From the NCBI GenBank assembly GCA_039030095.1, contig JBCCET010000004.1, positions 16,057 through 80,056 on the forward strand: a stretch of DNA of 64,000 nucleotides, read 5' to 3'. The position numbers and the translations under genes were made by a program. Shown here piece after piece: positions 26,578-62,840 of this stretch (position 1 is its first letter; each line of letters opens with the position of its first letter). Source of the DNA: Pseudomonadota bacterium. Lineage in GTDB: Bacteria; Pseudomonadota; Alphaproteobacteria; Rhodobacterales; Rhodobacteraceae. The notes beneath the pieces were generated by a model. That model saw nothing but the letters and a program-made list of their open reading frames with translations, was not told where the DNA came from and searched no databases.

Positions 26578-27603
26578 CTAGGCAGAAGCTCGCATGACCA
26601 GTTTCCCTTCAAAAAGCTTGATATCGTCGGAGGTTACCTTGTCCTCGATGGCGGCAAACAACGTCTGCATGGCATAGCTCGATATGGCATCATAATTCTG
26701 CGCGATGGTGGTCAAGGGTGGGCAAGTGAAACGCGAAAACGGGTGGTCATCCTGTCCAGCGACGCGAATTTCACAGCCTGCCTTGTGTCCTACGGACAGA
26801 CCCTTTTCGAAACACGCTGCCAGAAACCCGATGGCAAGCCTGTCATTGCTGCACAGCACGGTGCGCGTCTTGAAGCGGTCAGCACCCAGGGCCTGCAACC
26901 CGCCCAGATATCCGATCTCCTCAAACGCCCAACCGTCTCCGGGGACAGAAACAACGTCAGCTTCCTGGCCTAGATCCGCCATCGCATCCAGGTACGCCTG
27001 CCGTCTTCGGTTGGCGTTGGGGTTGGAAGGGTTGGCCATCTCAAAAAAGCTCGGCGGCTCCCCTGAACGGCACAGGTAGTCCACAATCAGCTTTGAAAAT
27101 TGCTGGTTATCGGACCCTACAAACGCGATGCCCAGATCCTGCAGATGGCTGTCGAACAGGACTGTCGGGATGTCCTCGCAGAATTTTTCAATGAAAGACC
27201 GGTCAGACGCGCGGCCAAGTGGTGCTAACAAAACCCCGGCAGGCTTCAGCGACCGGAGGCTGTCGAGTATTTCAACCTCCAGATCCGGCTCACCGTGTGA
27301 ACTGTAAAGCGTTGGGCGATACCCGGCGTCAATGCACCGCTCTTCAATGTTGCGTGCGATCTCCGCAAAAAACGGATCCGCCAGATACGGCACCACGATG
27401 CCCACGTTTTTGGTCAGCTTGCGGTTCTGGTTCATCGCGTAAATGTTGGGTCGATAGTCGTAGGTTTTCAGCGCGGCCTCGATATGCTGCCGGGTCGATT
27501 TTTTGACGCTGTCCGGGTCGTTGAAGAATTTTGAAACAGTGGGCCTCGACAACCCTATGGCCGCCGCAAATTCTTCCATGTTGCGGATTTTTTCGGTTGT
27601 CAT
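26578..27603 (-). CDS. LacI family transcriptional regulator
   Basis: 341-aa ORF with an N-terminal HTH 'IRNMEEFAAAIGLSRPTVSKFFN' and a periplasmic-binding-protein-like effector domain. Confidence 0.9.
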   Translation of the reverse strand: MTTEKIRNMEEFAAAIGLSRPTVSKFFNDPDSVKKSTRQHIEAALKTYDYRPNIYAMNQNRKLTKNVGIVVPYLADPFFAEIARNIEERCIDAGYRPTLYSSHGEPDLEVEILDSLRSLKPAGVLLAPLGRASDRSFIEKFCEDIPTVLFDSHLQDLGIAFVGSDNQQFSKLIVDYLCRSGEPPSFFEMANPSNPNANRRRQAYLDAMADLGQEADVVSVPGDGWAFEEIGYLGGLQALGADRFKTRTVLCSNDRLAIGFLAACFEKGLSVGHKAGCEIRVAGQDDHPFSRFTCPPLTTIAQNYDAISSYAMQTLFAAIEDKVTSDDIKLFEGKLVMRASA

Positions 27604-27659
27604 CTCTCACACGCTCCCGGCGGCATTTCGTTGCGACAAGTTACCCAAAAATTATTTTA

Positions 27660-27675
27660 TTATCGCGCGTCAAAA
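27660..27675. promoter_or_regulatory. candidate operator/promoter element in the lacI / fusion-gene divergent region
   Basis: TTATCGCGCGTCAAAAAT here versus TTATCGCGCGTAAAAAT (reverse complement of 26549-26565). Both copies have the same orientation relative to the downstream gene. Confidence 0.35.
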
Positions 27676-27833
27676 ATCAATCTTTACGTCGTTCAATCCC
27701 AGACCTATTTGGCCGGCCCAAAATCAACCGCCATTTCCCTCGCGGGGACGTCTTGCGACTGGATTCAGTCGTTATCCGCCGTTTTTGCCCAAATACGACC
27801 TATAGGGTCCCCAAAGCGAAAACAGCGATTCAG

Positions 27834-33132: not shown

Positions 33133-33687
33133 CTACGGTGCCACCCATGTGCCGACCCAATCATCCGCCCGTTGGTAAGCCGCACGGCGGTGTTGGTCAT
33201 CCAGATGCACCAGGTCGATGTCGGTTAACAGGCAGCGCAACACAGCAAAACGATCGCGAACCACCGGTTTGGCATAGTCATAAACGTGTCCGATGGGCGT
33301 ACCCGGCACAGGATCAGTTCCGTAGGACACGCGAGAGCCCGATGGCACCTTGTTCCATTCGGCCTCAACGCCGGGCCCTGTGCGAATGTCCACCTCCGCC
33401 GTCATTCTGATCTGCAAACGGGCGCGCGGCACCCAAACGTGCAAAGCGGCAATGGGCGCCTTTCGAAGTGCGCGGACCTTGTTAGTGTCGATGTCGGTGT
33501 GCACTTCTACCAGTGCCACGTTTTGATCTGCATGGCGTAGCGCAACCGTTCGCGCCTCTGGCACACCGTCGGGTGATATTGTGGCGAAGGTGGGAAACCG
33601 TGCCGGCGCATCTGCATCCGCAACACCCTCTGCTAGATGGCGCCAAGCGTCAGCCAAAAACGCCACAAGGTCGTTTGTGTCACTCAT
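33133..33687 (-). CDS. pyridoxamine 5'-phosphate oxidase-like FMN-binding family protein
   Basis: 184-aa ORF. 'ARFPTFATISPDGVPEARTVALR' and the split-barrel pattern. Overlaps the upstream AttH-like gene by 8 nt. Confidence 0.7.
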   Translation of the reverse strand: MSDTNDLVAFLADAWRHLAEGVADADAPARFPTFATISPDGVPEARTVALRHADQNVALVEVHTDIDTNKVRALRKAPIAALHVWVPRARLQIRMTAEVDIRTGPGVEAEWNKVPSGSRVSYGTDPVPGTPIGHVYDYAKPVVRDRFAVLRCLLTDIDLVHLDDQHRRAAYQRADDWVGTWVAP

Positions 33688-34720
33688 ATCCCGTCATCTC
33701 CAAATAACCTCTGCCTTGATGGCTGCCGCTGATCAAAACCGGCCCTTCCCAGTAGGGAATTGTCAGGTTCATCCAGGCATTCGGGTTTAATGCGCCAACG
33801 ACAACATCAACCCTGCGGTCCGGCAGTTTGACCTGCCACCGAATTGGGATGGCCCGCCCGTCCACAGACGTTTCAGCAAGCGGGACCGCCACAAAAGCAC
33901 CGGAGGGGTAGGCGGTCGTTGTGCCATCCGCAGCGATCCAGGTGGAGGCGCTGTATTGGCTGCCGTCAGTCTGGCGCAGTTGAAACCCCATCAGCTTCGT
34001 CCCATCGTTGAAAGACAGCGAAAACCAGTCCCATCCCGACTGCGTGTCAGACAAGGGTTGCGATGACCATTCCCGATCCAACCAGGCGTCGCCGCTGACC
34101 TGTACATCGCCGGTTGGCAGGCGCAACGTGCCTTCGATACGGAAGAAGGGTTGGGAGTAGTAGTTGCTCGCCTGACCCTCTGCCGATTTAACGGAAAACC
34201 CGTCCGCGCCGTGAAAAACGAGCGGCCCGTCCGCCGCAAGCGTCATGTCATAGGCAAAGTCTGACCCCTGTGCGCGTAGGGACAACGTATCAAAATCTGG
34301 CCCTTCCAGCGCCCATTCGTCGATCCATGCACGAAAGGGTGTTGCGGTCACGCCTGCTTGGCCAATGCCGCCGCGTGCAAACCTCTCAGTTGCGTAGTGG
34401 TTGTCCGGCGTCGTGACTGCTGCATGGGCAAACCACACTTGCGGGGACCGCCATCCTGCGGCCTCCCCCGGGGCCAGGGCAGATCGGAAAAGGGTCCATT
34501 GCAAGCCGTAGGGCGTGCCATCCTCGGAGGTCAGATTTGCAGTGATATACCACCATTCGATGCGGTAATCTGGGTGGGGGCCGTGGTCTGCTGGAAAGAT
34601 GAAAGCAGGGTTCGGTTCTGGCGTGGCGAAACCTTCGGCGTCCGTTCCCAAACCAGAAAAGCCCTGCGACCAGGCGGCTATGGGCAAAAGGCAGATCAAT
34701 ATCAGCCACCTAGCGTTCAT
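33680..34720 (-). CDS. AttH-like / CrtC-type lipocalin-fold secreted protein
   Basis: 346-aa ORF with a signal peptide. 'FPADHGPHPDYRIEWWYITANL' is the hallmark of the hydroxyneurosporene-synthase-like (AttH) family. Follows an ABC ATPase and a FtsX permease, as in the Agrobacterium attEFGH locus. Confidence 0.75.
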   Translation of the reverse strand: MNARWLILICLLPIAAWSQGFSGLGTDAEGFATPEPNPAFIFPADHGPHPDYRIEWWYITANLTSEDGTPYGLQWTLFRSALAPGEAAGWRSPQVWFAHAAVTTPDNHYATERFARGGIGQAGVTATPFRAWIDEWALEGPDFDTLSLRAQGSDFAYDMTLAADGPLVFHGADGFSVKSAEGQASNYYSQPFFRIEGTLRLPTGDVQVSGDAWLDREWSSQPLSDTQSGWDWFSLSFNDGTKLMGFQLRQTDGSQYSASTWIAADGTTTAYPSGAFVAVPLAETSVDGRAIPIRWQVKLPDRRVDVVVGALNPNAWMNLTIPYWEGPVLISGSHQGRGYLEMTGYE

Positions 34721-37088
34721 TTGCGAATACCTTCAGCAATGTTGCAGGCGACATCCGCGCCAGACGTAGCGCAGGCCAGGCAGCAGCCAAAACCGCCGCC
34801 ACAATAGTGTAGACGCCTAACAGCGCGTATTCTTTAGGGAACAGGAACATCGGAAGACGCCACCCAAAGGCCTCCACATTTATGATGCTCAACAAAACCC
34901 ACGCCAGCGCCAGACCAAGCGGCAGGGCAAAGGCAAAAACCAAAACGGACAACCCAACTGCACGCAGGATCTCCAGCCTGCCCAGCGTGCTACGGGTCAA
35001 TCCGGTGGCCCAAACCGGCGCCAACTGCGGCACGCGCACGTCAGCCAAGGTCAGCAGGCTCATCAACATGGCAAACCCCGCCACGCCGAGTGTCAGCACA
35101 TTCAGCACCTGCGTAACCGTAAACGTTCGGTCAAAAACTCGCATGGATGTGGCTTTGATCACGCCTTGATTGATCATCGAATTTGCAGGGATCCCGAGGT
35201 TTTTGGTGATATCGCTCCGTAAGCGATCCACATCTGCGGTGCGAACACCGAAGCGGAGCGCGGTACTGTCCGGATAGAGTTCTTTGAACACGCGTTCGGA
35301 CGTAATCACCTGACCATTGGGATTGCCGTAGTCGCCGACAACCGCTGCGATGGGCAGCGCAAGATCGGGGGCAATGTCCACACTATCACCCACCCACAAG
35401 CCTGCCCGACGGGCCAATTGCTCATTCACGACCAAGGCGGATCCGGCATCCACTTGGTCCCAGGCATTGGGGCTGGCCGCCAGAAACACCCAGTTGTTGC
35501 GGTATGTCGGCCCGACCCGCACGCCAAAATGGCGCACGGGGTGTCCGGCAATCTGCTTTCTGTTGACCATTAGCGGCAGCGTTTCCAATCCCCGGTCAGC
35601 CAAAAATGCCTCCAACGCGGCGCTTTGGTCTGCGGTTTCAACCGCGACAAACAGCTCCGGCGCCAAACGCTGATCCAAGAACCCAGTGAACGTCAGACGA
35701 AAGCTCGACACCATGGTTGAAACGCCGATGTTTGCCGACACAGCCAAGAGCAAGGCCATCAGCGCCAGGTTCAGACCGGGCAACTGTTGGCGCGTATCAG
35801 CCCAAAACCACTGCGCGACCGGTGCTGTCGTGCGCGCCTCAATCAAGCTCAGCGCCCGCGAAAATAGCCCTGGCAGGGCAAAAGCCGCGCCAACCAAAAG
35901 ACACGCCAACATTGCAAACCCGGCCAGCAAGCCGTCTACCAGAACCAAAAGCCCGACGGCTGTACAAAGCAGTCCCACCGCACTGATCGTAAGCCAACGA
36001 AATCGCTGGGCGCCGCCGACAACCCAAGCCCGAGGGCGGGCGCTTGCCAAAATGGGCATCTGCCAAACCTGCCAGATACGCCCGCTGAGCGCGGCGCCTG
36101 TGCCGAGCATCGTGATCAAGACACCGGAAAGCCACCATTCAGCACGCAGGTCCAGTGTGCCGGAAATCTGCGCGCCATAAAGTCCGCGTAGCGTGGCCGC
36201 CACATCAGGCAGCAGCATAGCCGCAATCAAATACCCCAAGACGATCCCGATCCCTGCGCCGATCAGGGCCAGGGTCAACATCTCCGCCGCGATCACGCTG
36301 ACAAGTACGCGCAGAGGCACACCAAGCGAGCGAAGGGTCCGGATCATGCCCCGGCGCTGCTCAAACGCCAATCCAATCGTGCTGTGCACGATGAACAGCC
36401 CAACCGCGAAGCTAAGGAACCCGAAGGCCGTCAGGTTTAGATGAAAACTCTCGGTCAGTTGCGCCACATCTGCCGTCTGTTGGGATGACTGCAGCCGCAA
36501 GTTCGGGGCGATATCAGAAAGGTCTGGCTGACCCTTTGGCTGTTCGGGCAACACGATAAGTCGGGTAAGATCGCCGCGGTCCAGAAGGCGTAGAACAACG
36601 CCAATATCCCCGACCGCTACGCCGGGCGCGACACCGGGATCGATCTGAACATCCGCGACGTCGGCCAAGGTGGCGGCCGTTTCCGTGTTAGCAAACAGCG
36701 GTGGCGCGTCCCCAAGCGCCGCCAACGCCGGGGCGCCTTTCATTTGCGATGATCCAAGCCCGCCAGGTGCCGTCAAAACGTCAAGCCCGACAATCCGCAC
36801 ACCTTGCAGTTGCCCTTCAACAACCGGGGAGACCAGCCATCCCGCGCTGCGGAGGTCAAGATACACCTGCAAAGGTATTGAGCCGCCCTGCCGAGGGATG
36901 AGTTGTTCGTACTGTCCCTCTCCCAGGGTTTGGGCTGCTGCGTCATAGCTGGCGCGCGCCTCTGAATTGATCGCCTGCACGCCGGTCCAAAGCCCCGTTG
37001 CCAAAGCCAGCCCGGCCAGCAGCGCAAACAGCTGCATCGGCTTACGCCGCCAGTGGGATATCAGTGCCGTCAGGCAAGTGCGGATCAT
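34710..37088 (-). CDS. ABC transporter permease, FtsX/MacB-type (duplicated FtsX domains)
   Basis: 792-aa ORF with two 4-TM FtsX-like blocks separated by large periplasmic loops. 4-nt overlap with the ATPase and 11-nt overlap with the AttH-like gene. Confidence 0.85.
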   Translation of the reverse strand: MIRTCLTALISHWRRKPMQLFALLAGLALATGLWTGVQAINSEARASYDAAAQTLGEGQYEQLIPRQGGSIPLQVYLDLRSAGWLVSPVVEGQLQGVRIVGLDVLTAPGGLGSSQMKGAPALAALGDAPPLFANTETAATLADVADVQIDPGVAPGVAVGDIGVVLRLLDRGDLTRLIVLPEQPKGQPDLSDIAPNLRLQSSQQTADVAQLTESFHLNLTAFGFLSFAVGLFIVHSTIGLAFEQRRGMIRTLRSLGVPLRVLVSVIAAEMLTLALIGAGIGIVLGYLIAAMLLPDVAATLRGLYGAQISGTLDLRAEWWLSGVLITMLGTGAALSGRIWQVWQMPILASARPRAWVVGGAQRFRWLTISAVGLLCTAVGLLVLVDGLLAGFAMLACLLVGAAFALPGLFSRALSLIEARTTAPVAQWFWADTRQQLPGLNLALMALLLAVSANIGVSTMVSSFRLTFTGFLDQRLAPELFVAVETADQSAALEAFLADRGLETLPLMVNRKQIAGHPVRHFGVRVGPTYRNNWVFLAASPNAWDQVDAGSALVVNEQLARRAGLWVGDSVDIAPDLALPIAAVVGDYGNPNGQVITSERVFKELYPDSTALRFGVRTADVDRLRSDITKNLGIPANSMINQGVIKATSMRVFDRTFTVTQVLNVLTLGVAGFAMLMSLLTLADVRVPQLAPVWATGLTRSTLGRLEILRAVGLSVLVFAFALPLGLALAWVLLSIINVEAFGWRLPMFLFPKEYALLGVYTIVAAVLAAAWPALRLARMSPATLLKVFANER

Positions 37089-37759
37089 GTCAAAACGCCG
37101 CCTTGCAGATGCAACGTGCGATCCATGCGCGCGGCCAGTTTGGGGGAATGGGTCACGACCATCAAAGCCGCACCGGTTTGAGACACAAGGTCCAGCATCT
37201 GGTCCAAGACGTCTTCGGCCGTGGCCTCATCCAGGTTTCCAGTGGGCTCGTCGGCCAACAGGAGCTTTGGTTTTGCCGCCAAAGCGCGTGCAATTGCCAC
37301 GCGCTGTTGCTGGCCGCCGGACAGCGCCTCCGGATACTTGCGCAACTGGTCCGTCAGCCCCAAAGCCGCAACCAACTCGGCAATGTGTGCGCTATCTGCA
37401 CGCCCTGCCAGCGACGCCTGAAACGATATGTTGGTTGCCACAGTCAGGGATGGGATCAGGTTGAACTGTTGAAAGACAAGCGCGATGTCGGTCCGTCGTA
37501 ATTCCGCGCGGGCACTGTCATCCATGCCCGCCAAGTCGCGACCTGCCACGGTGACCGATCCGCTGTCGGGTTCCTCCAGCCCAGCAGCAATGTGCAAGGC
37601 CGTGCTTTTGCCGCTGCCGGATTCCCCCGTCAGGGCAAGCGTAGATCCGGGCGCCAGGTCGATGCTTACACCGGAAAGAACCGGAACCTTGCCGTCGCTG
37701 TCTCGATAAGACTTCGTGATGTCTTTTAGCTTCAATACCATTTGGCGTTTTCCATACAT
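37085..37759 (-). CDS. ABC transporter ATP-binding protein (LolD/MacB-type)
   Basis: Walker A 'GESGSGKST', signature '[15 protein letters not shown]', Walker B '[12 protein letters not shown]'. An alternative start at 37741 gives MVLKLKD.... Confidence 0.9.
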
Positions 37760-47711: not shown

Positions 47712-49121
47712 ATGACGGATATCACTTTGAAAACGGACTACCTGATCGCAGGCGCGGGCGCGGTTGGAATGTCGTTTGCCGACGTGATCCTAACCGAAAC
47801 GGATGCAGACATCATCCTGTTCGACAGCCGGGCCAAACCGGGCGGCCATTGGAATGATGCATACCCCTTCGTAACGCTGCACCAGCCCAGCCAGTACTAT
47901 GGCGTTTCCTCCAAAGAGCTGTCTTCGGGATTGCGCGATGAAGTTGGGTTGAACAAAGGTATGGCCGACCTTGCCAGCGGCGCAGAGGTAAACGCCTATT
48001 TTGACCAGGTCATGCGACAAACGTTCTTGCCAAGCGGGCGTGTGCGCTGGTTTCCCATGTGTGACTGGCTGGGTGGTACGCGGTTTCAAAACCGACTGAC
48101 GGGTCAGACCTATTCCGTGGAAGCGGCCAAAACTGTTGACGCGACATTTCTGAAGACGTCGATTCCTTCCCGGCACACGCCAAATTTCACCGTATCTGGC
48201 GCCAAGTTGATCCCGCTGAACGATCTTCCGGACGTGGCCACACCACCAGACGGATACACCGTGATTGGCGGCGGCAAGACCGGGATCGACGCTTGTCTGT
48301 GGCTCTTGGAAATGGGTGTAGCGCCCAAAGATATCCGCTGGATCACGCCGCGCGACGGCTGGATGCTGGACCGAGCGAACACGCAGCCCAGCATGGACTT
48401 TTTTGAACAAACCCTCGGGTCAGTTGCAAATCAGTTCGAATCCATTGCCTACTCCACATCAATCGACGATATGTTCGATCGGCTTGAAGCCTGCGGGTAT
48501 TTCGTGCGTATCGACAAAGACGTGCGGCCCAAAATGTTCCACGGCGCCACGATTTCGCAGGCAGAGCTTGCCGCCTTGCGCGAAATCAAAAACGTCGTTC
48601 GCATGGGCCGGGTCAAATCGCTGGGCGCTACTGAAATCGTGCTCGACGGTGGGACCGTTCCGACCACACCCGGAACATTGCATGTGGATTGCTCTGCCAG
48701 TGCGATCACCAATGAAGAGATCAAGCCGATCTTTGCGGATGATCTGATCACCCCGCAAATGGTGCGCAGCTATCAGCCGATCTTTTCCGCAGCTTTCATC
48801 GCTCACATAGAAGCGACGCGTGCAGATGACGCAGAAAAGAACCGCCTATGCGGGGTCGTGCCGCTGCCCAACCATGACACCGACTTTATCCGCTTCACCT
48901 CCGCCTTCATGCTGAACCAATACAATTGGTCGCAAGAGGAAGACTTACGGCAGTGGCTCTTGGAAAACCGACTGGATGGGTTTTCAAAGCTGGTCTCTCA
49001 GGTCACGCCGGAAGACACCGCCAAAAAAGCGATCCTGAAACGGATCAAGGAAGCGTCTTTCCCGGCGGGCATGAAACTGCAAGGATACGTGTCAGAGCTA
49101 AAAAAGTGCGGCATGGCATAA
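47712..49121 (+). CDS. FAD/NAD(P)-binding oxidoreductase
   Basis: 469-aa ORF with N-terminal 'DYLIAGAGAVGMSFA...FDSRAKPGGHW' and a second 'VIGGGKTGIDA' dinucleotide motif. Confidence 0.7.
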   Translation: MTDITLKTDYLIAGAGAVGMSFADVILTETDADIILFDSRAKPGGHWNDAYPFVTLHQPSQYYGVSSKELSSGLRDEVGLNKGMADLASGAEVNAYFDQVMRQTFLPSGRVRWFPMCDWLGGTRFQNRLTGQTYSVEAAKTVDATFLKTSIPSRHTPNFTVSGAKLIPLNDLPDVATPPDGYTVIGGGKTGIDACLWLLEMGVAPKDIRWITPRDGWMLDRANTQPSMDFFEQTLGSVANQFESIAYSTSIDDMFDRLEACGYFVRIDKDVRPKMFHGATISQAELAALREIKNVVRMGRVKSLGATEIVLDGGTVPTTPGTLHVDCSASAITNEEIKPIFADDLITPQMVRSYQPIFSAAFIAHIEATRADDAEKNRLCGVVPLPNHDTDFIRFTSAFMLNQYNWSQEEDLRQWLLENRLDGFSKLVSQVTPEDTAKKAILKRIKEASFPAGMKLQGYVSELKKCGMA

Positions 49122-49382
49122 TTGCTTGATCTGATCTGGCAGCTTCAAACCGTGTCTGAATCAATACGGCCAGGGTTACGGGGATCAGACCCAATGCCGT
49201 GAATTGGATCGCAGCCTGTTACGGTCTGATGCTCCCACAAGCCATCGCGGCATAGGGTGATTTCTGAATTATTGAACCGCTTCATTTGACTATGCCAATT
49301 TGATTTTCTTGCCCGCTTCCGGCTCTGATGCCTTCCTTTCTGGGTTGCCCGGGAAGGTCTGATTAGTCGTTTTACTGGACCG

Positions 49383-49523
49383 CATATCCTTGCGTTTGAG
49401 GGCGAGGCCCATTTGGAGTGGGTAGAGGGTAACTTCGAAGACTACGAAGAGGATAAGGTCCGTAGGCTAGGCCCGAACGCGCTGGAGCCGACGCGTGTGA
49501 AGTATAAGAAGTTTGCGAGGTAG
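49383..49523 (+). pseudogene. ettA: 3'-terminal remnant of ettA (ABC-F translational throttle ATPase)
   Basis: Manual translation gives HILAFEGEAHLEWVEGNFEDYEEDKVRRLGPNALEPTRVKYKKFAR*. This closely parallels the E. coli EttA C-terminus (...FFEGNFTEYEEYKKRTLG.DALEPKRIKYKRIAK). No ABC domains lie upstream. Only degenerate, frame-broken traces ('LPG..LIS..F.LDRI') are visible back to ~49320. Confidence 0.8.
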
Positions 49524-49555
49524 GATTTTGAAATCATTAATTTTATTTTGAGCTT

Positions 49556-50413
49556 ATGCCTGATTTTAAAAAGCACAAAATTAAAATCCGCTTTACTGGT
49601 GGAATTGCTGGTGAACATGCTTTGCCGCTTTATGACGGAACGACCTCAATTCAAGGCGTGGGCCAAGCACTGCAGATTGCCACCCATGCGTTTATGACTG
49701 TGGAAGTGGTCACTAGAGCAACCGCTTTACAAAGAGCCAGGTTCGAACTTCGGCCTGCTCGCAAAGGCAGCTTCGTTTTTGAAGTTATTGCGATAATAGA
49801 AACTTATCCAGCCATGTCTGGAATTGCGACCGCAATTGGCGCCCCGGTTTTTTATGATTTTTTGAAAACGGCATTAAAACGAGCTTCCGGCGACTCGGAT
49901 GCAGATCCTGAAACAGCTCACCTCAAGAGAATTTACGAGCGCAAGGAGCCTCCTCCGTTGATGCGACCGCCCGCTGATCTGGACGATTTGGCTGAGGTTC
50001 TGGAGGGTAGTCTTCAACGCGCACATAGACCGATTGATGGTCATGAGGGCATCGAAGCGATTGAGGTTTCGACACCCAGAACTCAGTTATTGACGTTTGA
50101 TAGCGAGTCGAAAGACTGGGTAAACACCCGGGATGAGGCGCTTGGTATAGAGGTCTTTACTGGCAATGTTACACGTTTCAATTCGTTATCAAGAAACGGT
50201 CGCGCATATATTGAGCAGTTAGGACGCGTTGTACCGATTAAACCCGGGCCAGAATACGACGTTCAAGGGCTTCCATGGCTTACTTGGTCGTTGCATGGCA
50301 GTAATGCAGGACTTCCAAACAAGCTGCAGGTTAGGGCAAGGAGAGTCAGCTCCGCTAATGGAAGGGTAAAGCGCCTTTTATTGGTGGACAGTATTCCTCA
50401 ACCGCAAGATTAA
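49556..50413 (+). CDS. hypothetical protein (285 aa), AT-rich orphan
   Basis: Clean ORF in a locally AT-rich segment (17/60 GC in 49541-49600; 28/60 in 49801-49860). No family or catalytic motif recognised. Weak RBS. Confidence 0.6.
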   Translation: MPDFKKHKIKIRFTGGIAGEHALPLYDGTTSIQGVGQALQIATHAFMTVEVVTRATALQRARFELRPARKGSFVFEVIAIIETYPAMSGIATAIGAPVFYDFLKTALKRASGDSDADPETAHLKRIYERKEPPPLMRPPADLDDLAEVLEGSLQRAHRPIDGHEGIEAIEVSTPRTQLLTFDSESKDWVNTRDEALGIEVFTGNVTRFNSLSRNGRAYIEQLGRVVPIKPGPEYDVQGLPWLTWSLHGSNAGLPNKLQVRARRVSSANGRVKRLLLVDSIPQPQD

Positions 50414-56440: not shown

Positions 56441-56629
56441 TGCGGCCTCCGGCAAACTTCTTTGCCGCGCACTATCGCTGCGGGGCAGCAAAACGCAAGG
56501 GGAGGTGCGCGCAGCGACCCGATGGACGGTCCACCGGGTCAACTGCGCATAAGTGAGCTGGCCTCACCGCCCCCAGGCGAGACTGGCGCACGCAAACGCG
56601 CCGCCCAACAGGGGCGACGCGCATTCAGA

Positions 56630-59600
56630 TTATTTTTTCAGCATTTCCGCTTCGTGCGCTTTCAGCGTCAGGCGCGCGGCGGAGTAAGCTTCGCGAGCCG
56701 ACTTGCCTACCAGTTCCGGGAAGAGCTGGAAGATTTCGTCCCGCTGCTCTTTGCCGATACCTGCCATAGCCTGGTCACCTGGCTGGAAGCTTTCGGTCCA
56801 TGCGCCGTCTGACAGAACCACTTCGTGGTGGTCAAACATCATGTGCATGTAGGTGGCTTGGCTTGCCTCTACCCGGACGATCCCTTTGGACGGGTCGATC
56901 AGGTGTTTGGCAGCCACCAGAACCTCTGGCTCGTTGAACATCAGGCCAACATCGGCGTTGTGGACCAGCACGCGGTGTTGTGGGCTGACCAGCATGTCGC
57001 GTTCCGGCAGACCGTTGCCCAGCGCACCTTGCTGGATCAGGATTGGCTGCAGATGTGGGTTCGATTGCAGCTGCATACCGGACAGCGGCTTCGAGCCAAT
57101 CCAACGAACCTCTTGCGCACCGTTGTCGCGGGTGATGACCCGATCGCCGACTTGCAGATCCTCGACCTTACGCTCCCCTTGCATGGTCGCGATCATCGTA
57201 CCCGGTGTGAAACACGGGATCAGGTTCTCGATCTCGGTGTAGGTCATGGTCCCGATGACGTTGTCGTCGTCATCCAGGAATTCGATCGTACCCGAGGTGG
57301 AGTCGCCGTCCGCGTCCACGGTTTCGTTGACTTTGCGGAAACGTCCTACGCCAGTGAGGTCAAGCGTGTCGTTGTCGATACCATCAGTACCGCCGTCCAC
57401 ACTGTCGCCATCTGCATATTCTACAGAAGACCCGGTGTAGTCGAAGGTATCCGCATCGGCGCCGCCGAAGTACTCGTCCGCACCATGATCGTCGACAAAG
57501 GTGTCGGCCCCAGCGTCGCCGTGCAAGACGTCATCGTCGATGCCGCCGGTGATGCTGTCATCGTCAGCCCCGCCGAAGATCGTGTCGCTGTCGTCTTTGC
57601 CGTCGATGACATCGTTGCCAGCACCACCAAAGATGGTGTCGTCGCCGTTGTCAGGCCGCAGGTCGCCCTCATCGTCTTTGATGTTGAGCACGTCGAAGGC
57701 ATCTTCCAGACCACCGTAGATGGTGTCATCGCCGTCGCCACCTTCGATTTCGTCGTTACCTTCGCCACCGATGATGGTGTCGTTGCCGGTTCCGCCGTCG
57801 ATCGTGTCGTCGTCGAAGCCCGCGTCGATCACGTCGTCGCCTTGACCACCTTCGATGCTGTCGTCGTCATCGCCGGTTGTGATCGTGTCATTACCGCCGC
57901 CGCCGTAGACCGTATCAAGATCGTTGGTCGGATCATCGTCAGCCACATAGAGCCCTGGGTAATCCTGGTCCGGCTTGCCGGTAGGATCATTCGGGTTCAG
58001 CGAGATTGGGCCGGATGTATCAATTACATCGTTGCCATCACCGCCGTCAGCGGTGTCAGATCCGTCACCGCCATAGATGGTGTCGTCGCCGTTTTCGCCG
58101 CGCAGCAGGTCATCGCCTAGGCCCCCGACCAGCGTGTCTGCAGCGATGTCGCCGTTCAGCGAGTCATTGCCTTCGCCGCCGTCAAGGTAATCGCCGCCGC
58201 GGTTACCGCTGAGCGTGTCGTTGCCCGCGCCACCGAAGAGGCTGTCGTTGCCTTCGCCACCGAACAAGCGGTCGTCGTCGGCACCGCCGAAGAGCGTGTC
58301 ATCGCCATCACCGCCACCCATGGTGTCGTTGCCAGCATCGCCGTGAAGCGTGTCGTCACCATCATTGCCCATGATGTTGTCGTTGCCTTCGCCGCCGAAC
58401 ACTTCGTCGTTGCCAAGACCCGCGTTTACGCTGTCGTTGCCGTCGCCAGCTTTGATGCAGTCGTCGTCGCCATCGGCGCCGTCAATGGTGTCGCCTTGGG
58501 CGTCCACAAAGCCGATGCCCATAACGTCGTTGCCGGCCGTACCGTCAACGCACCCGTCAGGCAGAACGCGATCACCTTTGATCTCCTCAATTTCCGAGAA
58601 TTCCATGGTGCCGAGGATGTTGCCGTCCGCGTCCAGGAAGTTGATCGTGCCGGAGGTAGAGTCACCGTCTGGGTCAACCGTCTCGTTTACGACAGAGAAC
58701 GGACCCGCGCCGGTCAGGTCGAGGATGTCATAGTCGTCACCCTCCGTGCCGCCGTCAACAACGTCCCCGAAGGTACCGCCATTAATCACGTCGCGGTCTT
58801 TGCCACCAAAGATGGTGTCAGCGCCGTCACCGCCGGTCAGCATGTCGTTGCCGTCGCCACCTGTCAGGGTGTCGTCGTCACCTTCGCCGAACAGCATGTC
58901 GTTACCAGCACCACCGTCGAGCACGTCATTGCCGTCCTGGCCATGCATCCAGTCGTTGCCTTCGCCACCGAATGCGGTGTCGTTGCCAGCGCCCATCCAG
59001 ACTTCGTCGTTGCCGTCGCCGCCTTCTGCGTAATCTTCACCAGCACCGCCGATAAGGAAGTCACGCTCGGCACCACCAAACATGGAGTCGTTGCCGCCGC
59101 CGCCGTACAACCGGTCAGCACCGTCTTCGCCGTAAAGCGTGTCGTTGCCGTTGTTGCCGTTCAGCGTGTCGTTGCCGTTGCCGCCGAAGACTTCGTCGTT
59201 GCCTTGGCCTGCATCGACACTGTCATTGCCGTCACCGGCTTTGATGCAATCATCGTCCCCGTCAGCGCCATCGATTGTGTCACCCTGCAAATCCACAAAG
59301 CCAACGCCCATAACGTCGTTGCCGTCCGTGCCGTCAACGCAGCCGTCAGGTTCAACGCGATCACCTTTGATTTCTTCAATCTCGGTGAAGGTCATGGAAC
59401 CGGTGACGTTGCTATCCGCATCAAGGAATTCGATGGTGCCCGATGTGCTGTCGCCGTCTGGATCAACGGTTTCGTTGACCACCCGGAACGGGCCAGCACC
59501 GGTCAGGTCGAGGATGTCGTAGTCGTCGCCACCTGTTCCGCCATCAACCACGTCGCCGTCGTTGCCGCCGATTATCGTGTCGCGGTCATCGCCGCCCACA

Positions 59601-62509
59601 ACCATGTCTTTGCCTGCGCCGCCGATCAGAGTGTCGTCGCCAGCGCCGCCTTTGACCCGGTCGTCGCCGTCGCCGCCGTCAACATAGTCATTGCCCGCGT
59701 CGCCGTGCAGCCAGTCATAGCTGTCGCCACCCAGAACGGTGTCGTTGCCTTCACCACCCCAGATCTCATCATGGCCGCCGCGTCCTTCAAGAACGTCGTC
59801 GCCATCTTGGCCGCGGATAACATCGATGCTTTCACCGCCGATGACAGTGTCGTTGCCATCGCCCGCGTTGATGTCGTTGCGGCCGGTTGTGCCTTCGCCC
59901 GTGATGGTGTCGTTGCCATCCCCACCAAAGACGCTATCGCGACCGTTGCCGACGCTGATCGTGTCGTTGCCGTCACCACCTTCAAGCCGGTCATTGCCTT
60001 CGCCGCCGAATACTTCGTCGTCGCCGAGCCCCGCGTTCACGCTGTCGTTGCCGTCACCTGCTTTGATGCAGTCGTCGTCGCCGTCAGCGCCGTCGATTGT
60101 GTCACCCTGCGCATCAACAAAGCCGATGCCCATGGTGTCATTGCCGTCGGTGCCGTCAACGCAGCCATCTGGTTCAACGCGATCGCCTTTGATCTCTTCA
60201 ATCTCGGTGAAAGTCATGGAACCGGTAACGTTGAAGCTAGCGTCGAGGAACTCAATGGTGCCCGACGTGCTGTCGCCGTCCGGATCCACGGTTTCGTTGA
60301 CCACCCGGAAGGTGCCCGCGCCAGTTAGGTCCAGGATGTCGTAATCGTCGCCGTCTGTGCCGCCGTCGACCGCATCACCGTCATTACCGCCGATGATCGT
60401 ATCACGGTCAGCGCCGCCAAACACTGTGTCAGCGCCCGCACCTGCGTCGATGGTGTCATTGCCGTCGCCGCCTTCGATGTAATCGTCGCCAGCTGCGCCG
60501 TTGTCATCTTTGTAAAGCTTGTCGCCGTCGATGACGTCGTTGCCAGTGCCGCCGAAGATGGAGTCGTCGTCGGACCCACCAGACAGTGTGTCGTTACCTT
60601 CATCGCCGTGCACAATGTCTTTGCCGTGACCGCCGTAAGAGCTGTCGTCGCCAAGACCGCCAAACACGGTGTCGTTGTCGGCAGACGCCCAAAGGTTGTC
60701 GTTGCCTTCGCCGCCAAAGAGTGTGTCGTCGCCCCAGGAAGCTTCGACCATGTCGTCGCCAGTGCCGCCGAAGAAGGTGTCGTTGCCAGCATCCGCGCCG
60801 CCGAGGTTGTCGTTGCCCTCGCCGCCGTAGATTTCGTCGTTGCCCTGGTTGCCGAAGATGCGGTCGTCGCCCTCTTCGCCGTAAAGTTCGTCGTCACCCA
60901 AGCCGCCATCGATGCTGTCACCGGTGTCAACGCCAGGATGACCGGTTTCAATCACATCGTAGTAAACGTCAGAAAACCAGATGCCCGAGTTGTGGTCGCC
61001 TTCAGAGTGGTGGATTGTGATCTTGGCAATTGGTCCAGCAATCTCGACCAGGGCAGAGAAGTTAGGATCGTTCTCCGGGCCGTATTGGTTTTGAGCGCTG
61101 TCTGCGGTTTTGAAGCCACCAGCTACAGCTTGTAGTTTCCCGCCGAGCGAGAATGTCACAGGCACTTGGTTACCAGCTGCGTCATAAGCTTTGATGATGA
61201 CGTTGGCTGAACCGTCGGCGTCGTTCACACGGAAATCGAGGTTGTTGACCTCTTTGTCGAATGTCATCTCGTAAGATGTGGAACCGTTGTGCACATCGCT
61301 CAGATCAGACAGGAAACCGCTGTCGTCATCGATGGTCTCTGTACCGTCGTCGATGCCTGTAACCAGTTGATCACTGTCAGAAAATTCGTGGTCGATCTTG
61401 TTGCTGGATTCGGAAGTTACCTTGAAGTTGACGTTAACCTTGCCAGTGTCCTGGGTGACGTTTTCAACCTTGTCACCGTCGTCAATTCCGCCGCTGCCGT
61501 TCGGATCAGGCAGTTTGTCCCATTCAAAGCTTTCACGGGTTGTGGTGGTGCCACCGGCACCCGGTTCCAGCCCGCCGTAGACGACGTCATCGCCGTCGCC
61601 GCCTTTGATAGTGTCGCTATCTGCACCGCCGTAAACGGTGTCATCGCCGTCGCCAGCGTGGATGTTGTCGTCACCCTTGTAGCCTTTGATGACGTCATCG
61701 TCGCCATCAGCGCCATCAATGGTGTCATTGTCTGCGTCAACAAAGCCAACACCCATGGTGTCATTGCCATCGGTGCCGTCAACGCAGTCATCATCGTCTG
61801 CTGCATGGCCAAGGTCGTAGATCTGCACATCGTCGATCTGACCATCGAAAAATTCGTTCAAGTGATTTGCGGTGTTGTCGTCGCTTACCTTTTGGGACGC
61901 GCCAATTGTCCATGGCTCGTTGAAGTTGGGACCCATGTCGATGGTCAGCGGCTCTGCGATATCTTCGTCGTAAACGTGACCGGTGGTGTTGTTCACCACG
62001 TAAAAGCGACCATCCACACCATCTTCGTCCCAGATGTAGGTGACCGATACGTCATCACCAGGGCTGAAGAAATGTTTCGGCGTTTCAAAGTGGAAACTTT
62101 GATTATCGGTTTGGTGACGAACGGTGACCTCACCGTGTTTTGTCACTTGGATTGTCAGGTGCCCGCCATCATCGTAGTTGCTTGAATCCCGCGAAATCAG
62201 AGTGTCCGGGGAGCTTCCAACGTGGTGGTCTTGAGAGAAGTCGAGGCTGAGCGCGCCTTTGCCAATCTGGAAGTTGTCATCCGCTGCAATCAGAACCGCG
62301 TCGTTTTCACCGTCAAGGTCCAGCTCGTTTGTCGCGTTCAGCGTGTTGGCAGATCCGATGTTCGTGCCTGTCTGCGCTACGCCGTCGTTGGCGGTCGCAG
62401 TGTCTTGGAACGTCCGGTCGGCAATTGGGTGCTGACCTTGGTTGTTGTCGTTAAACAGATACTGGGCAATGAGATTGTTCTGATCCAGGATCGGGGCTGG
62501 GTTAGCCAT
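56630..62509 (-). CDS. giant secreted LamG - RTX (hemolysin-type Ca-binding) - Hint (bacterial intein-like) domain protein
   Basis: The track ORF starts at GTG 62521. The ATG at 62509 is preceded by GGAG at 6 nt, giving 1,959 aa. There are dozens of GGxGxDxUx nonapeptides. The N-terminus looks like a LamG-type jelly-roll ('...EFFDGQIDDVQIYD'). The C-terminus carries 'IPCFTPGTMIATMQGERKVEDLQVGDRVITRDNG...SPQHRVLV', a Hint module. Confidence 0.9.
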   Translation of the reverse strand: MANPAPILDQNNLIAQYLFNDNNQGQHPIADRTFQDTATANDGVAQTGTNIGSANTLNATNELDLDGENDAVLIAADDNFQIGKGALSLDFSQDHHVGSSPDTLISRDSSNYDDGGHLTIQVTKHGEVTVRHQTDNQSFHFETPKHFFSPGDDVSVTYIWDEDGVDGRFYVVNNTTGHVYDEDIAEPLTIDMGPNFNEPWTIGASQKVSDDNTANHLNEFFDGQIDDVQIYDLGHAADDDDCVDGTDGNDTMGVGFVDADNDTIDGADGDDDVIKGYKGDDNIHAGDGDDTVYGGADSDTIKGGDGDDVVYGGLEPGAGGTTTTRESFEWDKLPDPNGSGGIDDGDKVENVTQDTGKVNVNFKVTSESSNKIDHEFSDSDQLVTGIDDGTETIDDDSGFLSDLSDVHNGSTSYEMTFDKEVNNLDFRVNDADGSANVIIKAYDAAGNQVPVTFSLGGKLQAVAGGFKTADSAQNQYGPENDPNFSALVEIAGPIAKITIHHSEGDHNSGIWFSDVYYDVIETGHPGVDTGDSIDGGLGDDELYGEEGDDRIFGNQGNDEIYGGEGNDNLGGADAGNDTFFGGTGDDMVEASWGDDTLFGGEGNDNLWASADNDTVFGGLGDDSSYGGHGKDIVHGDEGNDTLSGGSDDDSIFGGTGNDVIDGDKLYKDDNGAAGDDYIEGGDGNDTIDAGAGADTVFGGADRDTIIGGNDGDAVDGGTDGDDYDILDLTGAGTFRVVNETVDPDGDSTSGTIEFLDASFNVTGSMTFTEIEEIKGDRVEPDGCVDGTDGNDTMGIGFVDAQGDTIDGADGDDDCIKAGDGNDSVNAGLGDDEVFGGEGNDRLEGGDGNDTISVGNGRDSVFGGDGNDTITGEGTTGRNDINAGDGNDTVIGGESIDVIRGQDGDDVLEGRGGHDEIWGGEGNDTVLGGDSYDWLHGDAGNDYVDGGDGDDRVKGGAGDDTLIGGAGKDMVVGGDDRDTIIGGNDGDVVDGGTGGDDYDILDLTGAGPFRVVNETVDPDGDSTSGTIEFLDADSNVTGSMTFTEIEEIKGDRVEPDGCVDGTDGNDVMGVGFVDLQGDTIDGADGDDDCIKAGDGNDSVDAGQGNDEVFGGNGNDTLNGNNGNDTLYGEDGADRLYGGGGNDSMFGGAERDFLIGGAGEDYAEGGDGNDEVWMGAGNDTAFGGEGNDWMHGQDGNDVLDGGAGNDMLFGEGDDDTLTGGDGNDMLTGGDGADTIFGGKDRDVINGGTFGDVVDGGTEGDDYDILDLTGAGPFSVVNETVDPDGDSTSGTINFLDADGNILGTMEFSEIEEIKGDRVLPDGCVDGTAGNDVMGIGFVDAQGDTIDGADGDDDCIKAGDGNDSVNAGLGNDEVFGGEGNDNIMGNDGDDTLHGDAGNDTMGGGDGDDTLFGGADDDRLFGGEGNDSLFGGAGNDTLSGNRGGDYLDGGEGNDSLNGDIAADTLVGGLGDDLLRGENGDDTIYGGDGSDTADGGDGNDVIDTSGPISLNPNDPTGKPDQDYPGLYVADDDPTNDLDTVYGGGGNDTITTGDDDDSIEGGQGDDVIDAGFDDDTIDGGTGNDTIIGGEGNDEIEGGDGDDTIYGGLEDAFDVLNIKDDEGDLRPDNGDDTIFGGAGNDVIDGKDDSDTIFGGADDDSITGGIDDDVLHGDAGADTFVDDHGADEYFGGADADTFDYTGSSVEYADGDSVDGGTDGIDNDTLDLTGVGRFRKVNETVDADGDSTSGTIEFLDDDDNVIGTMTYTEIENLIPCFTPGTMIATMQGERKVEDLQVGDRVITRDNGAQEVRWIGSKPLSGMQLQSNPHLQPILIQQGALGNGLPERDMLVSPQHRVLVHNADVGLMFNEPEVLVAAKHLIDPSKGIVRVEASQATYMHMMFDHHEVVLSDGAWTESFQPGDQAMAGIGKEQRDEIFQLFPELVGKSAREAYSAARLTLKAHEAEMLKK
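56777..57214 (-). other. Hint / bacterial intein-like (BIL) domain of the giant protein
   Basis: The first residue, Cys, is encoded at 57212-57214 (TGT on the minus strand). The 'CFTPGT' block A and 'SPQH' (TxxH-like) block B are present. No C-terminal HN plus nucleophile as in true inteins. Confidence 0.7.
58391..60415 (-). repeat. three tandem coding super-modules (periods 822 and 789 nt) inside the giant gene
   Basis: Conserved ~138-aa blocks lie at track-ORF aa 703-840, 977-1114 and 1240-1377 ('DYDILDLTGAG.F.VVNETVDPDGDSTSGTI.FLD...EIEEIKGDRV.PDGCVDGT.GND.MG.GFVD.QGDTIDGADGDDDCIKAGDGNDSV'). A fourth, partial copy (aa 1706-1768) abuts the Hint Cys. Confidence 0.85.
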
Positions 62510-62840
62510 GATGATCTCCACTCGTTAACATGCCGGTGACGCCCGGCAAGGCGCACGCGGGAAAGCTGATGATGCGGGTACGAAAGATGCGAGCAAGCAA
62601 GACGACCCTCACCCTAGGTCCACCACGGCGCGTTCAAAAACAAGCATTTTCTGCAAATTTCCGCCGAATTAACGCTGTTTTTGAACAATTTCGCCAAAAA
62701 ATTCCTTTTTTGCAGAAACACTCAACCACAGGGTTCGGCTTTGTTTCGGCAACGAACACAATGCCACGATTTTGCCATCATTCGAAAGGCGAGCTTTTCT
62801 GTTCTTTTGGTCAGATTCGACGCCGATTTTGCAATCGATG

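Follow-up and report, generated by a model that had tools for sequence, protein, structure and literature searches.

Several RTX proteins are known to cut themselves after export. These include the proteins that carry the FrpC/ApxIVA module, which performs a Ca-dependent Asp-Pro cleavage, and those with the MARTX cysteine protease domain, which is activated by InsP6. FrpC is an RTX protein with 'clip-and-link' chemistry and cross-links through its activated new C-terminus. Both kinds of module are internal, and their proteins keep a normal C-terminal type I secretion system (T1SS) signal. Substrates of the T1SS are threaded unfolded and with the C-terminus first.

Reviews describe type-B bacterial intein-like (BIL) domains as cutting at their junctions but not splicing (PMC4031507, PMC7765530), and one of them assigns Thr B:7 and His B:10 a role at the N-terminal scissile bond (PMC4031507). 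Both reviews place the publication of in-vitro autoprocessing by B-type BIL domains in 2003-2004 (Amitai 2003; Dassa 2004; PMC4031507, PMC7765530). In Hedgehog (Hog) proteins, a passenger is followed by a Hint domain that begins with Cys and by a short helical extension, and the thioester formed is able to transfer the passenger (PMC5874633, PMC2362128). The region after the Hedgehog Hint is the adduct- or sterol-recognition region (ARR/SRR; PMC2362128).

Here, a 1,959-aa protein of a marine Rhodobacterales bacterium, with four RTX blocks and a C-terminal Hint domain, is compared with these systems. The term window refers to the whole 64-kb stretch of DNA that was analysed (64,000 nucleotides). 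The abstract of Amitai 2003 is said to have already noted RTX repeats flanking BIL domains.

Gene and domain architecture

The gene and its surroundings contain the following features, listed in the direction of transcription:

62516..62519 (-): GGAG Shine-Dalgarno-like motif, read directly, 6 nt upstream of the ATG at 62509
56630..62509 (-): whole gene, 1,959 codons plus stop codon
61805..62482 (-): ConA-like/LamG-type lectin jelly roll, aa ~10-235, from predicted structure, without signal peptide
61559..61786 (-): block-1 start motif (CVDGTDGND..GFVD..DTIDGADGDDD) and first RTX turns, aa 242-317
60926..61558 (-): beta-sandwich domain without family assignment, aa 318-528, confidently modelled and recurring in the family
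60191..60925 (-): block-1 RTX beta-roll, aa 529-773, closing with cap module 1 (aa 715-773)
59369..60163 (-): block 2, aa 783-1047, with start motif (C783/C814), RTX repeats and cap module 2 (aa 989-1047)
58580..59341 (-): block 3, aa 1057-1310, with start motif (C1057/C1088), RTX repeats and cap module 3 (aa 1252-1310)
57215..58552 (-): block 4, aa 1320-1765, with start motif (C1320/C1351), RTX repeats and cap module 4 (aa 1705-1765)
57212..57214 (-): codon of Cys1766, the predicted nucleophile; predicted scissile bond Pro1765-Cys1766
56774..57214 (-): Hint_2 (B-type BIL-like) domain, predicted to be autoprocessing, aa 1766-1912, with block-B residues Ser1842 and His1845
56633..56773 (-): conserved tail of fixed length, 47 aa, aa 1913-1959, two helices (..QRDEIFQLFPEL..AARLTLKAHEAEMLKK), from alignment and model
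56596..56622 (-): terminator-like hairpin just past the stop codon, GC-rich, 11 bp, then UUUG; weak (z -1.74)

The open reading frame (ORF) that the original prediction had placed at 56630-62509 (-) was recovered as such, with 1,959 aa from an ATG preceded by GGAG. Upstream of this start the frame stays open to a GTG (56630..62521 (-), 1,963 aa). The ATG-started form is the version present in public collections and is a singleton at 90% identity in the cluster table; neither it nor the 1,963-aa product had an exact match in assemblies. A sigma-70 promoter scan yielded 0 sites, and terminator sites were at chance level. The gene located 3' of the ORF encodes a HAD-family hydrolase. The ORF represents a clean, complete and monocistronic-looking example of an RTX-Hint_2 protein, and its observed features are not chance patterns. 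Taken as a whole, the observation behind the original prediction is confirmed, and its interpretation is supported in part.

The head of the protein clearly belongs, by its predicted structure, to the jelly rolls of the concanavalin A-like superfamily, although its Pfam match to Laminin_G_3 is sub-threshold (E 0.0099, 16.5 bits against a cut-off of 27.6); the N-terminal LamG-like domain proposed earlier is thus recovered at the level of the model and not of the sequence profile. In fold searches, the head as modelled by AlphaFold2 (aa 1-530, pLDDT 90.6) resembles the ConA-like/LamG jelly rolls of CBM40, pentraxin, botulinum toxin Hc and neurexin LNS, with E values of 1e-5 to 1e-7 for CBM40, pentraxin and LNS, and PF13385 is present in several homologues. 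The beta-rich insert of ~200 aa that had been noticed in the sequence is a confidently modelled beta-sandwich (aa ~318-528). Neither its sequence nor an insert-domain profile matched a Pfam family, and no PDB sequence relative was found, the profile giving only AbpX at E 0.011. This recurrent ~200-aa domain without a Pfam family constitutes a small cataloguing gap.

The remainder of the passenger consists of the four RTX blocks, each closed by a cap module of ~60 aa. The dozens of GGxGxD Ca-binding nonapeptides described beforehand amount to 39 strict and 57 relaxed motifs, and HemolysinCabind was matched in Pfam with E 1.2e-140 over 26 stretches. The cap module that follows the last RTX turn is modelled as a confident beta-sheet and abuts the Hint domain without a gap (..EIENLIP/C). 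This cap module is nearly as conserved as the Hint itself, with an invariant Ile-Glu at positions -6 and -5, and its first half is aligned to CyaA inter-block segments by the family profile. In NCBIfam, the cap module gave RTX-type sub-threshold matches only, and the tail gave none.

Hint_2 domain and C-terminal tail

A Hint domain beginning with Cys at the C-terminus, on which the original prediction had staked itself, was found with both Pfam and Foldseek. The Hint_2 profile (PF13403) is matched over its full length (aa 1765-1912, profile positions 1-147 of 147, E 1.2e-57, 194.8 bits against a cut-off of 28.4), and at E <= 0.01 Hint_2 alone was matched here in Pfam, with neither PT-HINT nor Intein_splicing. 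The AlphaFold2 model of the region (pLDDT 82.5) has a Hint fold, for which the top Foldseek matches are inteins and BIL domains (6mwy with E 2.9e-5, 2lwy and 6tmm, all with probability 1.0; TM-score on the target 0.54-0.68). The codon at 57212-57214 encodes the Cys of LIPCFTPGT, as had been proposed. Cys1766, Ser1842, His1845 and many core residues are invariant (121/121 homologues), and residue -1 is Pro in 117 of the 121. In engineered inteins, Pro at this position disfavours N-terminal cleavage. The end of the domain, read directly as ..GAWTESFQPGD, contains no His-Asn and is followed by no downstream Cys/Ser/Thr nucleophile. The prediction of N-terminal self-cleavage at Cys1766 is reasonable: the Hint fold is in place, Cys1 is invariant, as are the Ser and His of block B, and reviews report junction cleavage for type-B BIL domains (PMC4031507, PMC7765530).

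The window domain shares with B-type BIL domains (Amitai 2003; Dassa 2004) the Hint fold, Cys1, the block-B Ser/Thr-x-x-His, the absence of a C-terminal His-Asn motif and the placement in variable, non-conserved bacterial proteins. There is no essential difference, the window copy following an unusually long passenger of 1,765 aa in four blocks. On these shared features, and not by direct alignment to published BIL sequences, Hint_2 appears to correspond to the B-type BIL. The earlier statement that the processing of such proteins is uncharacterised was too strong, given the in-vitro autoprocessing published in 2003-2004.

The Hint domain is followed by the helical tail, estimated at ~45 aa beforehand and found to comprise 47 aa with two modelled helices (pLDDT 52-81, a moderate confidence). 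R, E, F, P, L, R, L and E are invariant among the 121 tail sequences, and the LFPE motif is kept even in distant LamG-Hint_2 proteins. DUF7438 was considered for the tail and dismissed (Pfam E 0.054). RTX substrates of the T1SS carry an uncleaved secretion signal in the last ~50-60 aa; at this position the window protein has the two helices of its last 47 aa, highly conserved and behind a folded Hint. Typical T1SS signals are unlike such a strongly conserved tail of fixed length.

Family and relatives

The unit of Hint and tail matches 12,193 representative clusters at E <= 1e-10. In all of the best 150 of these 12,193 matches no more than 0-6 aa follow it before the C-terminus. These 150 proteins are 273-2,730 aa long, mostly RTX-rich and without signal peptides. 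Across the family the passengers are highly variable and include RTX, LamG, cadherin-like or PA14 domains. An N-terminal hydrophobic segment is present in only 2 of 146 family representatives. Many Hint_2 proteins carry neither a cap module nor RTX repeats ahead of the Cys (LamG-Hint_2, cadherin-like-Hint_2), and small Hint_2 paralogues without Cys1 also exist (L001:12838-13479).

By sequence comparison, the window protein is an ordinary member of a very large and already catalogued family, and its architecture is not unusual. That the family is catalogued had been stated in the original prediction. The same prediction held that Hint and tail occupy the position of the T1SS signal, but the architecture is not special to the locus; the layout is standard in the family, which counts more than 12,000 representative clusters, and the puzzle it poses is therefore family-wide.

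Among Rhodobacterales proteins annotated as 'Hint domain-containing protein' or 'type I secretion protein' (LamG-RTX-Hint_2), P0122, P0127 and P0146 share with the window protein the order of LamG head, insert domain, RTX, cap module, Hint and tail. Another homologue, P0258, has a length of 1,963 aa and likewise contains four cap modules; its identity to the window protein is 47% over 1,785 aa. The window gene occupies a chromosomal position other than the syntenic locus common to four homologues. When the C-terminal 270 aa were scanned against genome contigs, one locus was found, in Aliiroseovarius marinus, with 59% identity.

In marine Rhodobacterales, the RTX-Hint_2 proteins rank with the protein families that have expanded most. 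One comparative study lists Hint and RTX domains as over-represented in Rhodobacteraceae that responded strongly to its bloom-type treatments (PMC12487129). The view that function and export route of these proteins are unstudied appears correct, as a literature search found no functional paper on the Hint domain in Rhodobacter and its relatives. In vivo cleavage or secretion of any Hint_2 protein was not found in the literature searched, and neither Hint nor intein is mentioned in the main text of studies of Dinoroseobacter outer-membrane vesicles or of the exoproteomes of Phaeobacter and Nautella.

Secretion

No N-terminal signal peptide was identified in the window protein, the highest hydropathy of any 12-mer within its first 45 aa being 0.28, with no TM-like segment. 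Secretion genes had been reported to be absent nearby, and indeed no ABC exporter, HlyD-type or TolC-type protein was found among all ORFs of at least 380 aa in the 64-kb window. In homologue neighbourhoods, no ABC/HlyD pair was found within 10 kb of seven homologues, and a single TolC-like OEP gene was present (L006). A C-terminal, autonomously folding Hint domain of 150 aa is awkward for the T1SS, because its substrates are threaded unfolded and C-terminus first. The combination of a C-terminal Hint with T1SS export is a real gap, and one that applies to the whole family. The modules of FrpC/ApxIVA and MARTX are unrelated in fold and chemistry and lie internally, whereas the window Hint is terminal.

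A precedent is the secreted 2,164-aa RTX protein YP_168868 of Ruegeria pomeroyi, whose intein-like region was without peptides in the exoproteome (PMC2953401). It is likewise a giant RTX protein of the Roseobacter group without a signal peptide, and was itself found in the exoproteome (PMC2953401). Its element is internal (aa 149-372), ends in ..VHN and is thus A-type/intein-like, whereas the window Hint is terminal and of the B type. In YP_168868, the RTX repeats lie downstream of the intein-like element, at the C-terminal end.

Predicted processing and alternative explanations

We favour, with a probability of roughly 0.55, the explanation that the window gene encodes a secreted RTX adhesin-like protein, probably exported by a T1SS encoded elsewhere, and that a Hint thioester at Pro1765-Cys1766 sheds Hint and tail. 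Such a product would be extracellular, a giant RTX protein that binds Ca2+ and belongs to the adhesin or surface type, in an Amylibacter-like Rhodobacterales host. Its extracellular and Sec-independent character is suggested by the RTX repeats, the lack of an N-terminal hydrophobic segment and the passenger types of the family, and the most likely route would be a T1SS encoded elsewhere in the genome. The folded Hint would then perform an N-to-S acyl shift at Pro1765-Cys1766, and the thioester would be resolved, by default through hydrolysis. This would part the 1,765-aa passenger from the 194-aa Hint and tail, which would therefore serve as a disposable C-terminal maturation or export cassette common to thousands of different passengers, a behaviour suggested by its constant position at the C-terminus in all 150 best representatives. 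The locus brings no new principle; it could serve to test whether type I secretion tolerates a Hint at the C-terminus, and also whether cleavage takes place inside or outside the cell and whether the thioester is hydrolysed or transferred.

Several points speak against this preferred explanation, namely the absence of T1SS genes in the 64 kb and of an ABC/HlyD pair within 10 kb of seven homologues, the awkward fit of a folding C-terminal Hint with T1SS threading, the conserved tail of fixed length and the Pro at -1 in 117/121 sequences.

The tail is conserved far more than a simple linker requires, in its invariant residues (R, E, F, P, L, R, L, E) and in the LFPE motif kept even in distant LamG-Hint_2 proteins. 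It could accordingly be read as an analogue of the Hedgehog adduct- or sterol-recognition region, recruiting a specific nucleophile that attacks the Pro1765 thioester. The RTX passenger would then become covalently linked to a lipid, a target surface or an amine of LPS or peptidoglycan. We regard such a Hedgehog-like transfer as unlikely. The layout of passenger, Cys-first Hint and short conserved helical extension is that of Hog, and RTX proteins with 'clip-and-link' chemistry such as FrpC are known. The window junction, however, is Pro-Cys-Phe and not Gly-Cys-Phe as in Hog, the protein is bacterial and Sec-independent, and the tail, itself modelled with only moderate confidence (pLDDT 52-81), has no detectable sequence or fold similarity to the Hedgehog SRR. 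Furthermore, no Hog structure appeared in the top 50 fold matches, no candidate acceptor is at hand, and reviews report only cleavage for type-B BIL domains expressed in E. coli (PMC4031507, PMC7765530). That Hint_2 and tail are a bacterial counterpart of Hog which, after Sec-independent export, passes the Pro1765 thioester to a defined nucleophile in the cell envelope or on a target surface and so anchors a giant RTX adhesin covalently, or in a variant that cytoplasmic cleavage unmasks the true T1SS end, is doubtful; if either were true, the family with its more than 12,000 protein clusters, without a biological role since 2003, would gain one.

The Pro at -1 (117/121) could also suppress the acyl shift altogether. 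The protein would then stay full length, and the Hint would be a structural or recognition module, which might for example be the actual signal read by a dedicated exporter. The small paralogues without Cys1 (L001:12838-13479) imply that the fold is used without its nucleophile, and the conservation of Hint and tail as a single block at the extreme C-terminus would fit. Nevertheless, Cys1 in 121/121 homologues together with the invariant block-B Ser and His argues for selection on catalysis, and published type-B BIL domains cleave (PMC4031507, PMC7765530), which makes a non-processing Hint improbable.

A cytoplasmic cleavage that frees ..TYTEIENLIP-COOH, the end of the cap module, as the real T1SS targeting end would reconcile T1SS threading with the folded Hint at the C-terminus, with the Hint acting as a timer or quality gate for export. 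The conservation of the cap module, nearly that of the Hint and with Ile-Glu invariant at -6/-5, is in line with such an unmasking, and some Hint-less RTX proteins (P0201, P0405) end in a visually similar ..F.GIE.IEW. This similarity is without statistical support: in BLASTP, the pre-Hint cap module and the C-terminus of Hint-less RTX proteins such as P0201 align with E 0.38, and a database search with that C-terminus returned only 2 proteins. Moreover, the cap module cannot be a universal signal, because many Hint_2 proteins have neither cap module nor RTX before the Cys. It also occurs internally three times in the window protein, so a structural cap fits better than a signal. We consider the unmasking of a signal very unlikely.

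The Hint fold and Cys1 are also found in splicing inteins and in the pre-toxin Hint domains that release a C-terminal toxin in polymorphic toxin systems, but the probability of either is negligible: the host protein is not conserved, and the Hint is C-terminal and not inserted. An intein is effectively ruled out by the sequence, which lacks His-Asn and a downstream Cys/Ser/Thr and continues into the 47-aa tail, and a pre-toxin Hint likewise, as no toxin domain was found and what follows is only this conserved, non-polymorphic 47-aa tail, the next gene being that of the HAD-family hydrolase.

Hint domain and C-terminal tail

The LamG-RTX protein encoded at 56630-62509 (minus strand) ends in a Hint module starting at a cysteine and followed by a helical tail, as the original prediction had proposed. 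Hint_2 (PF13403) matches end to end over aa 1765-1912 (E 1.2e-57), the codon of Cys1 lies at 57212-57214, and the model of aa 1690-1959 (pLDDT 82.5) has inteins and bacterial intein-like (BIL) domains as its top structural neighbours, the last 47 residues forming two helices. Across 121 homologues, the catalytic set comprising Cys1 and block-B S1842 and H1845 is invariant together with many core residues, and the tail, always of the same length, has eight invariant positions. Residue -1 (57215-57217, minus strand) is Pro in 117 of the 121, with Ile or Val at -2 and -3. Hint domains do not usually have a near-invariant Pro next to the scissile bond, and this residue could serve to hold back premature cleavage.

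BIL domains comprise two types, both found in the hypervariable parts of bacterial proteins that are not conserved, of which the A-type carries a C-terminal His-Asn and is able to splice (PMC4031507, PMC7765530, PMC5874633). The Hint end of the window protein has no His-Asn, and the domain is a B-type BIL by the criteria of these reviews, equated by features and not by alignment to published BILs. Flanking RTX repeats were reportedly mentioned already in a 2003 abstract on BIL domains. The exoproteome of Ruegeria pomeroyi contains an abundant 2,164-aa RTX protein that has an intein-like stretch in its interior, with zero peptides from that stretch (PMC2953401). Hint and RTX domains are each noted as enriched in Rhodobacteraceae responding strongly to treatments (PMC12487129). 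No in-vivo role or export route was found in literature joining 'Hint domain' and 'Rhodobacter*'. The description of function, export and processing as uncharacterised thus appears to hold for the first two in vivo and is too strong for processing, which is already known for this domain type from in-vitro work. The export route, the cleavage site in the cell and the fate of the thioester are questions of the whole family, not of this locus.

An abundant family with variable passengers

A word-indexed search with the last 275 aa found 1,906 proteins; among the best 120, nearly all carry Hint_2, most also have RTX repeats, and the named members are Rhodobacterales. Exhaustive phmmer searching of 1.84 billion representatives with Hint and tail (aa 1766-1959) gave 18,684 matches at E <= 1e-3, 12,193 at E <= 1e-10 and 3,092 at E <= 1e-30. 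All of the best 150 matches end 0-6 residues from the protein C-terminus, in proteins of 273 to 2,730 aa. Among family proteins from this search, at least three RTX motifs occur in 132/147, a length of at least 1,500 aa in 35/147, and an N-terminal hydrophobic stretch in only two of the 146 starting with Met.

A homologue of 1,963 aa (P0258) shares the same plan at 47% identity, and many genera have LamG-insert-RTX-Hint_2 proteins of 700-930 aa, which carry the annotation 'Hint domain-containing protein' or 'type I secretion protein'. LamG-Hint_2 proteins of ~400 aa exist without RTX repeats or the cap module that closes each RTX block, and other members place cadherin-like or unrelated segments directly before the Hint Cys. 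Given this range of passengers, the constant part is Hint plus tail at the extreme C-terminus, while the passenger varies. Despite being a singleton at 90% identity, the window protein has the standard design and adds a large new member to a family that is known and very abundant.

Architecture of the passenger

The 1,765-aa passenger is of extracellular type. Its proposed LamG-like N-terminus falls below the Pfam threshold (Laminin_G_3, 16.5 bits, E 0.0099). The AlphaFold2 model of aa 1-530 (pLDDT 90.6, 81 sequences in the alignment) best matches concanavalin-A-like jelly rolls in the PDB, including CBM40 sialic-acid-binding modules, pentraxin, botulinum toxin Hc-N and neurexin LNS. Because of these matches and the presence of PF13385 in several homologues, the label 'LamG-like' is right at the fold level. 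The beta-rich insert noted earlier as unassigned was modelled with high confidence:

60926-61558, minus strand: beta-sandwich insert domain of ~200 aa (aa ~318-528)

Pfam gave no match for this sequence or for any of 20 homologous copies scanned singly, and a profile from the 20 copies gave only a marginal match to PDB sequences. The domain was found in more than 50 of 80 aligned homologues and recurs in over 50 RTX(-Hint_2) proteins of Rhodobacterales, with the consensus ..ESFEWD..TQ.TG.V.V.F...V.NV.FRINDID..V.I.AYDA.GN.V.V....LV.I.GPV..I.I.H...TD.YFD, and looks like an uncatalogued domain family.

The dozens of GGxGxD nonapeptides noted earlier number 39 by the strict and 57 by the relaxed motif, and HemolysinCabind scores E 1.2e-140. 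The repeats are arranged in four blocks, a detail absent from the original prediction, each starting with CVDGTDGND..GFVD..GDTIDGADGDDD and ending in a ~60-aa module, D.LDLTG.G.F.VVNETVDPDGDSTSGTIEFLD...NV.G.M.F.EIE.I. Blocks 2-4 start with a Cys pair (PDGCVDGT...DDDCIKAG), block 1 with its first Cys only:

60068-60163, minus strand: Cys pair of block 2 (aa 783/814)
59246-59341, minus strand: Cys pair of block 3 (aa 1057/1088)
58457-58552, minus strand: Cys pair of block 4 (aa 1320/1351)

The partners are exactly 31 residues apart and could be disulfides in a Cys-poor secreted protein. Since the model shows the closing module as a sheet of three strands (pLDDT 87-95) and the family profile places the first half of the module against segments between the blocks of the CyaA RTX domain, we read it as a putative beta-roll C-terminal cap. 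The fourth copy joins Hint directly (..EIENLIP|CFTPGT). Multi-module proteins are frequent in the family (more than one module in 69 and four in five of 287 module-bearing proteins).

Secretion genes and homologous loci

Every window ORF of at least 380 aa was scanned for secretion genes. The only ABC components in the window belong to an FtsX-type pair or are importer ATPases, and neither HlyD nor TolC was found among these ORFs, which bears out the claim that the 64 kb lacks recognisable type I secretion system (T1SS) genes. The sole exporter-like ABC system, not a T1SS, is:

33680-37759, minus strand: cluster of a CrtC-like lipocalin protein, a 792-aa FtsX-type permease and a 224-aa ABC ATPase

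An ABC/HlyD pair was found at none of seven homologous loci compared with 10-kb flanks; one has a TolC-like OEP gene 2 kb off, adjoining a PCMT gene. Four of the seven are syntenic (DsbB-VTT ... RTX-Hint_2, second Hint_2 gene, NTP_transf_3, DAO/GCV_T), a position that the window gene does not occupy. Small Hint_2-only genes (212-228 aa) follow the RTX-Hint_2 gene at three homologous loci:

L001, 12838-13479: small Hint_2-only gene
L002, 12888-13526: small Hint_2-only gene
L004, 11319-12005: small Hint_2-only gene

The L001 copy lacks the Cys nucleophile, as LEGGT replaces CFTPGT.

Proposed processing

The window protein has no signal peptide. We propose that export would be Sec-independent, probably via a T1SS encoded elsewhere, and that an N-to-S acyl shift at Pro1765-Cys1766 with hydrolysis of the thioester would free the 1,765-aa passenger from the 194-aa cassette. 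We assign this combination a probability of about 0.55; confidence is much higher in domain identity alone and lower in the T1SS step. The folded Hint sits at the very end that a T1SS threads first, which is awkward for this proposal; Pro at -1 disfavours cleavage in engineered inteins, and the tail is more conserved than a typical T1SS signal would be. Hedgehog-like transfer, in which a nucleophile chosen by the tail would receive the passenger, is unlikely. A non-processing Hint with a purely structural or recognition role is similarly improbable, and the invariant Cys argues against it. Even less credible is cytoplasmic cleavage that would expose the cap module as the genuine secretion end: the visual likeness of this module to the C-termini of RTX proteins without a Hint was not upheld statistically, and many family members lack the module. 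Intein splicing or toxin release is highly implausible. The observation itself is correct, well above chance, and its earlier interpretation was sound at the domain level, but it made the architecture out to be rarer, and its processing less studied, than they are.

Gene and genomic surroundings

The gene is a single minus-strand ORF from GTG at 62521 to 56630; the ATG at 62509, with GGAG upstream at 62516-62519, yields the 1,959-aa form recorded in public collections (Asp 18%, Gly 18%, only eight Cys). A GC-rich hairpin 3' of the stop codon is not distinguishable from shuffled sequence. Flanked by genes for a histidine kinase, a HAD hydrolase, a MaoC dehydratase, RibF and a DnaE2-like polymerase, the ORF looks like a stand-alone gene among housekeeping genes. 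At >=90% identity, the window's homogentisate dioxygenase falls into one cluster with proteins of Amylibacter and Neptunicoccus, which on sequence grounds indicates an Amylibacter-like member of Rhodobacterales as host.

At 47712-50413 (plus strand), a 469-aa protein without a Pfam match adjoins a DUF7946/DUF7947 protein where GC content is lower (0.53-0.54 between 46 and 50 kb), directly upstream of the DnaE2-like polymerase; this region could be an acquired island. The 1,086-aa ORF at 27531-30791 (plus strand, TTG start) has a 2-hydroxyacid dehydrogenase NAD-binding domain (aa 775-927) as its sole Pfam match, and its 5' end is probably over-extended.
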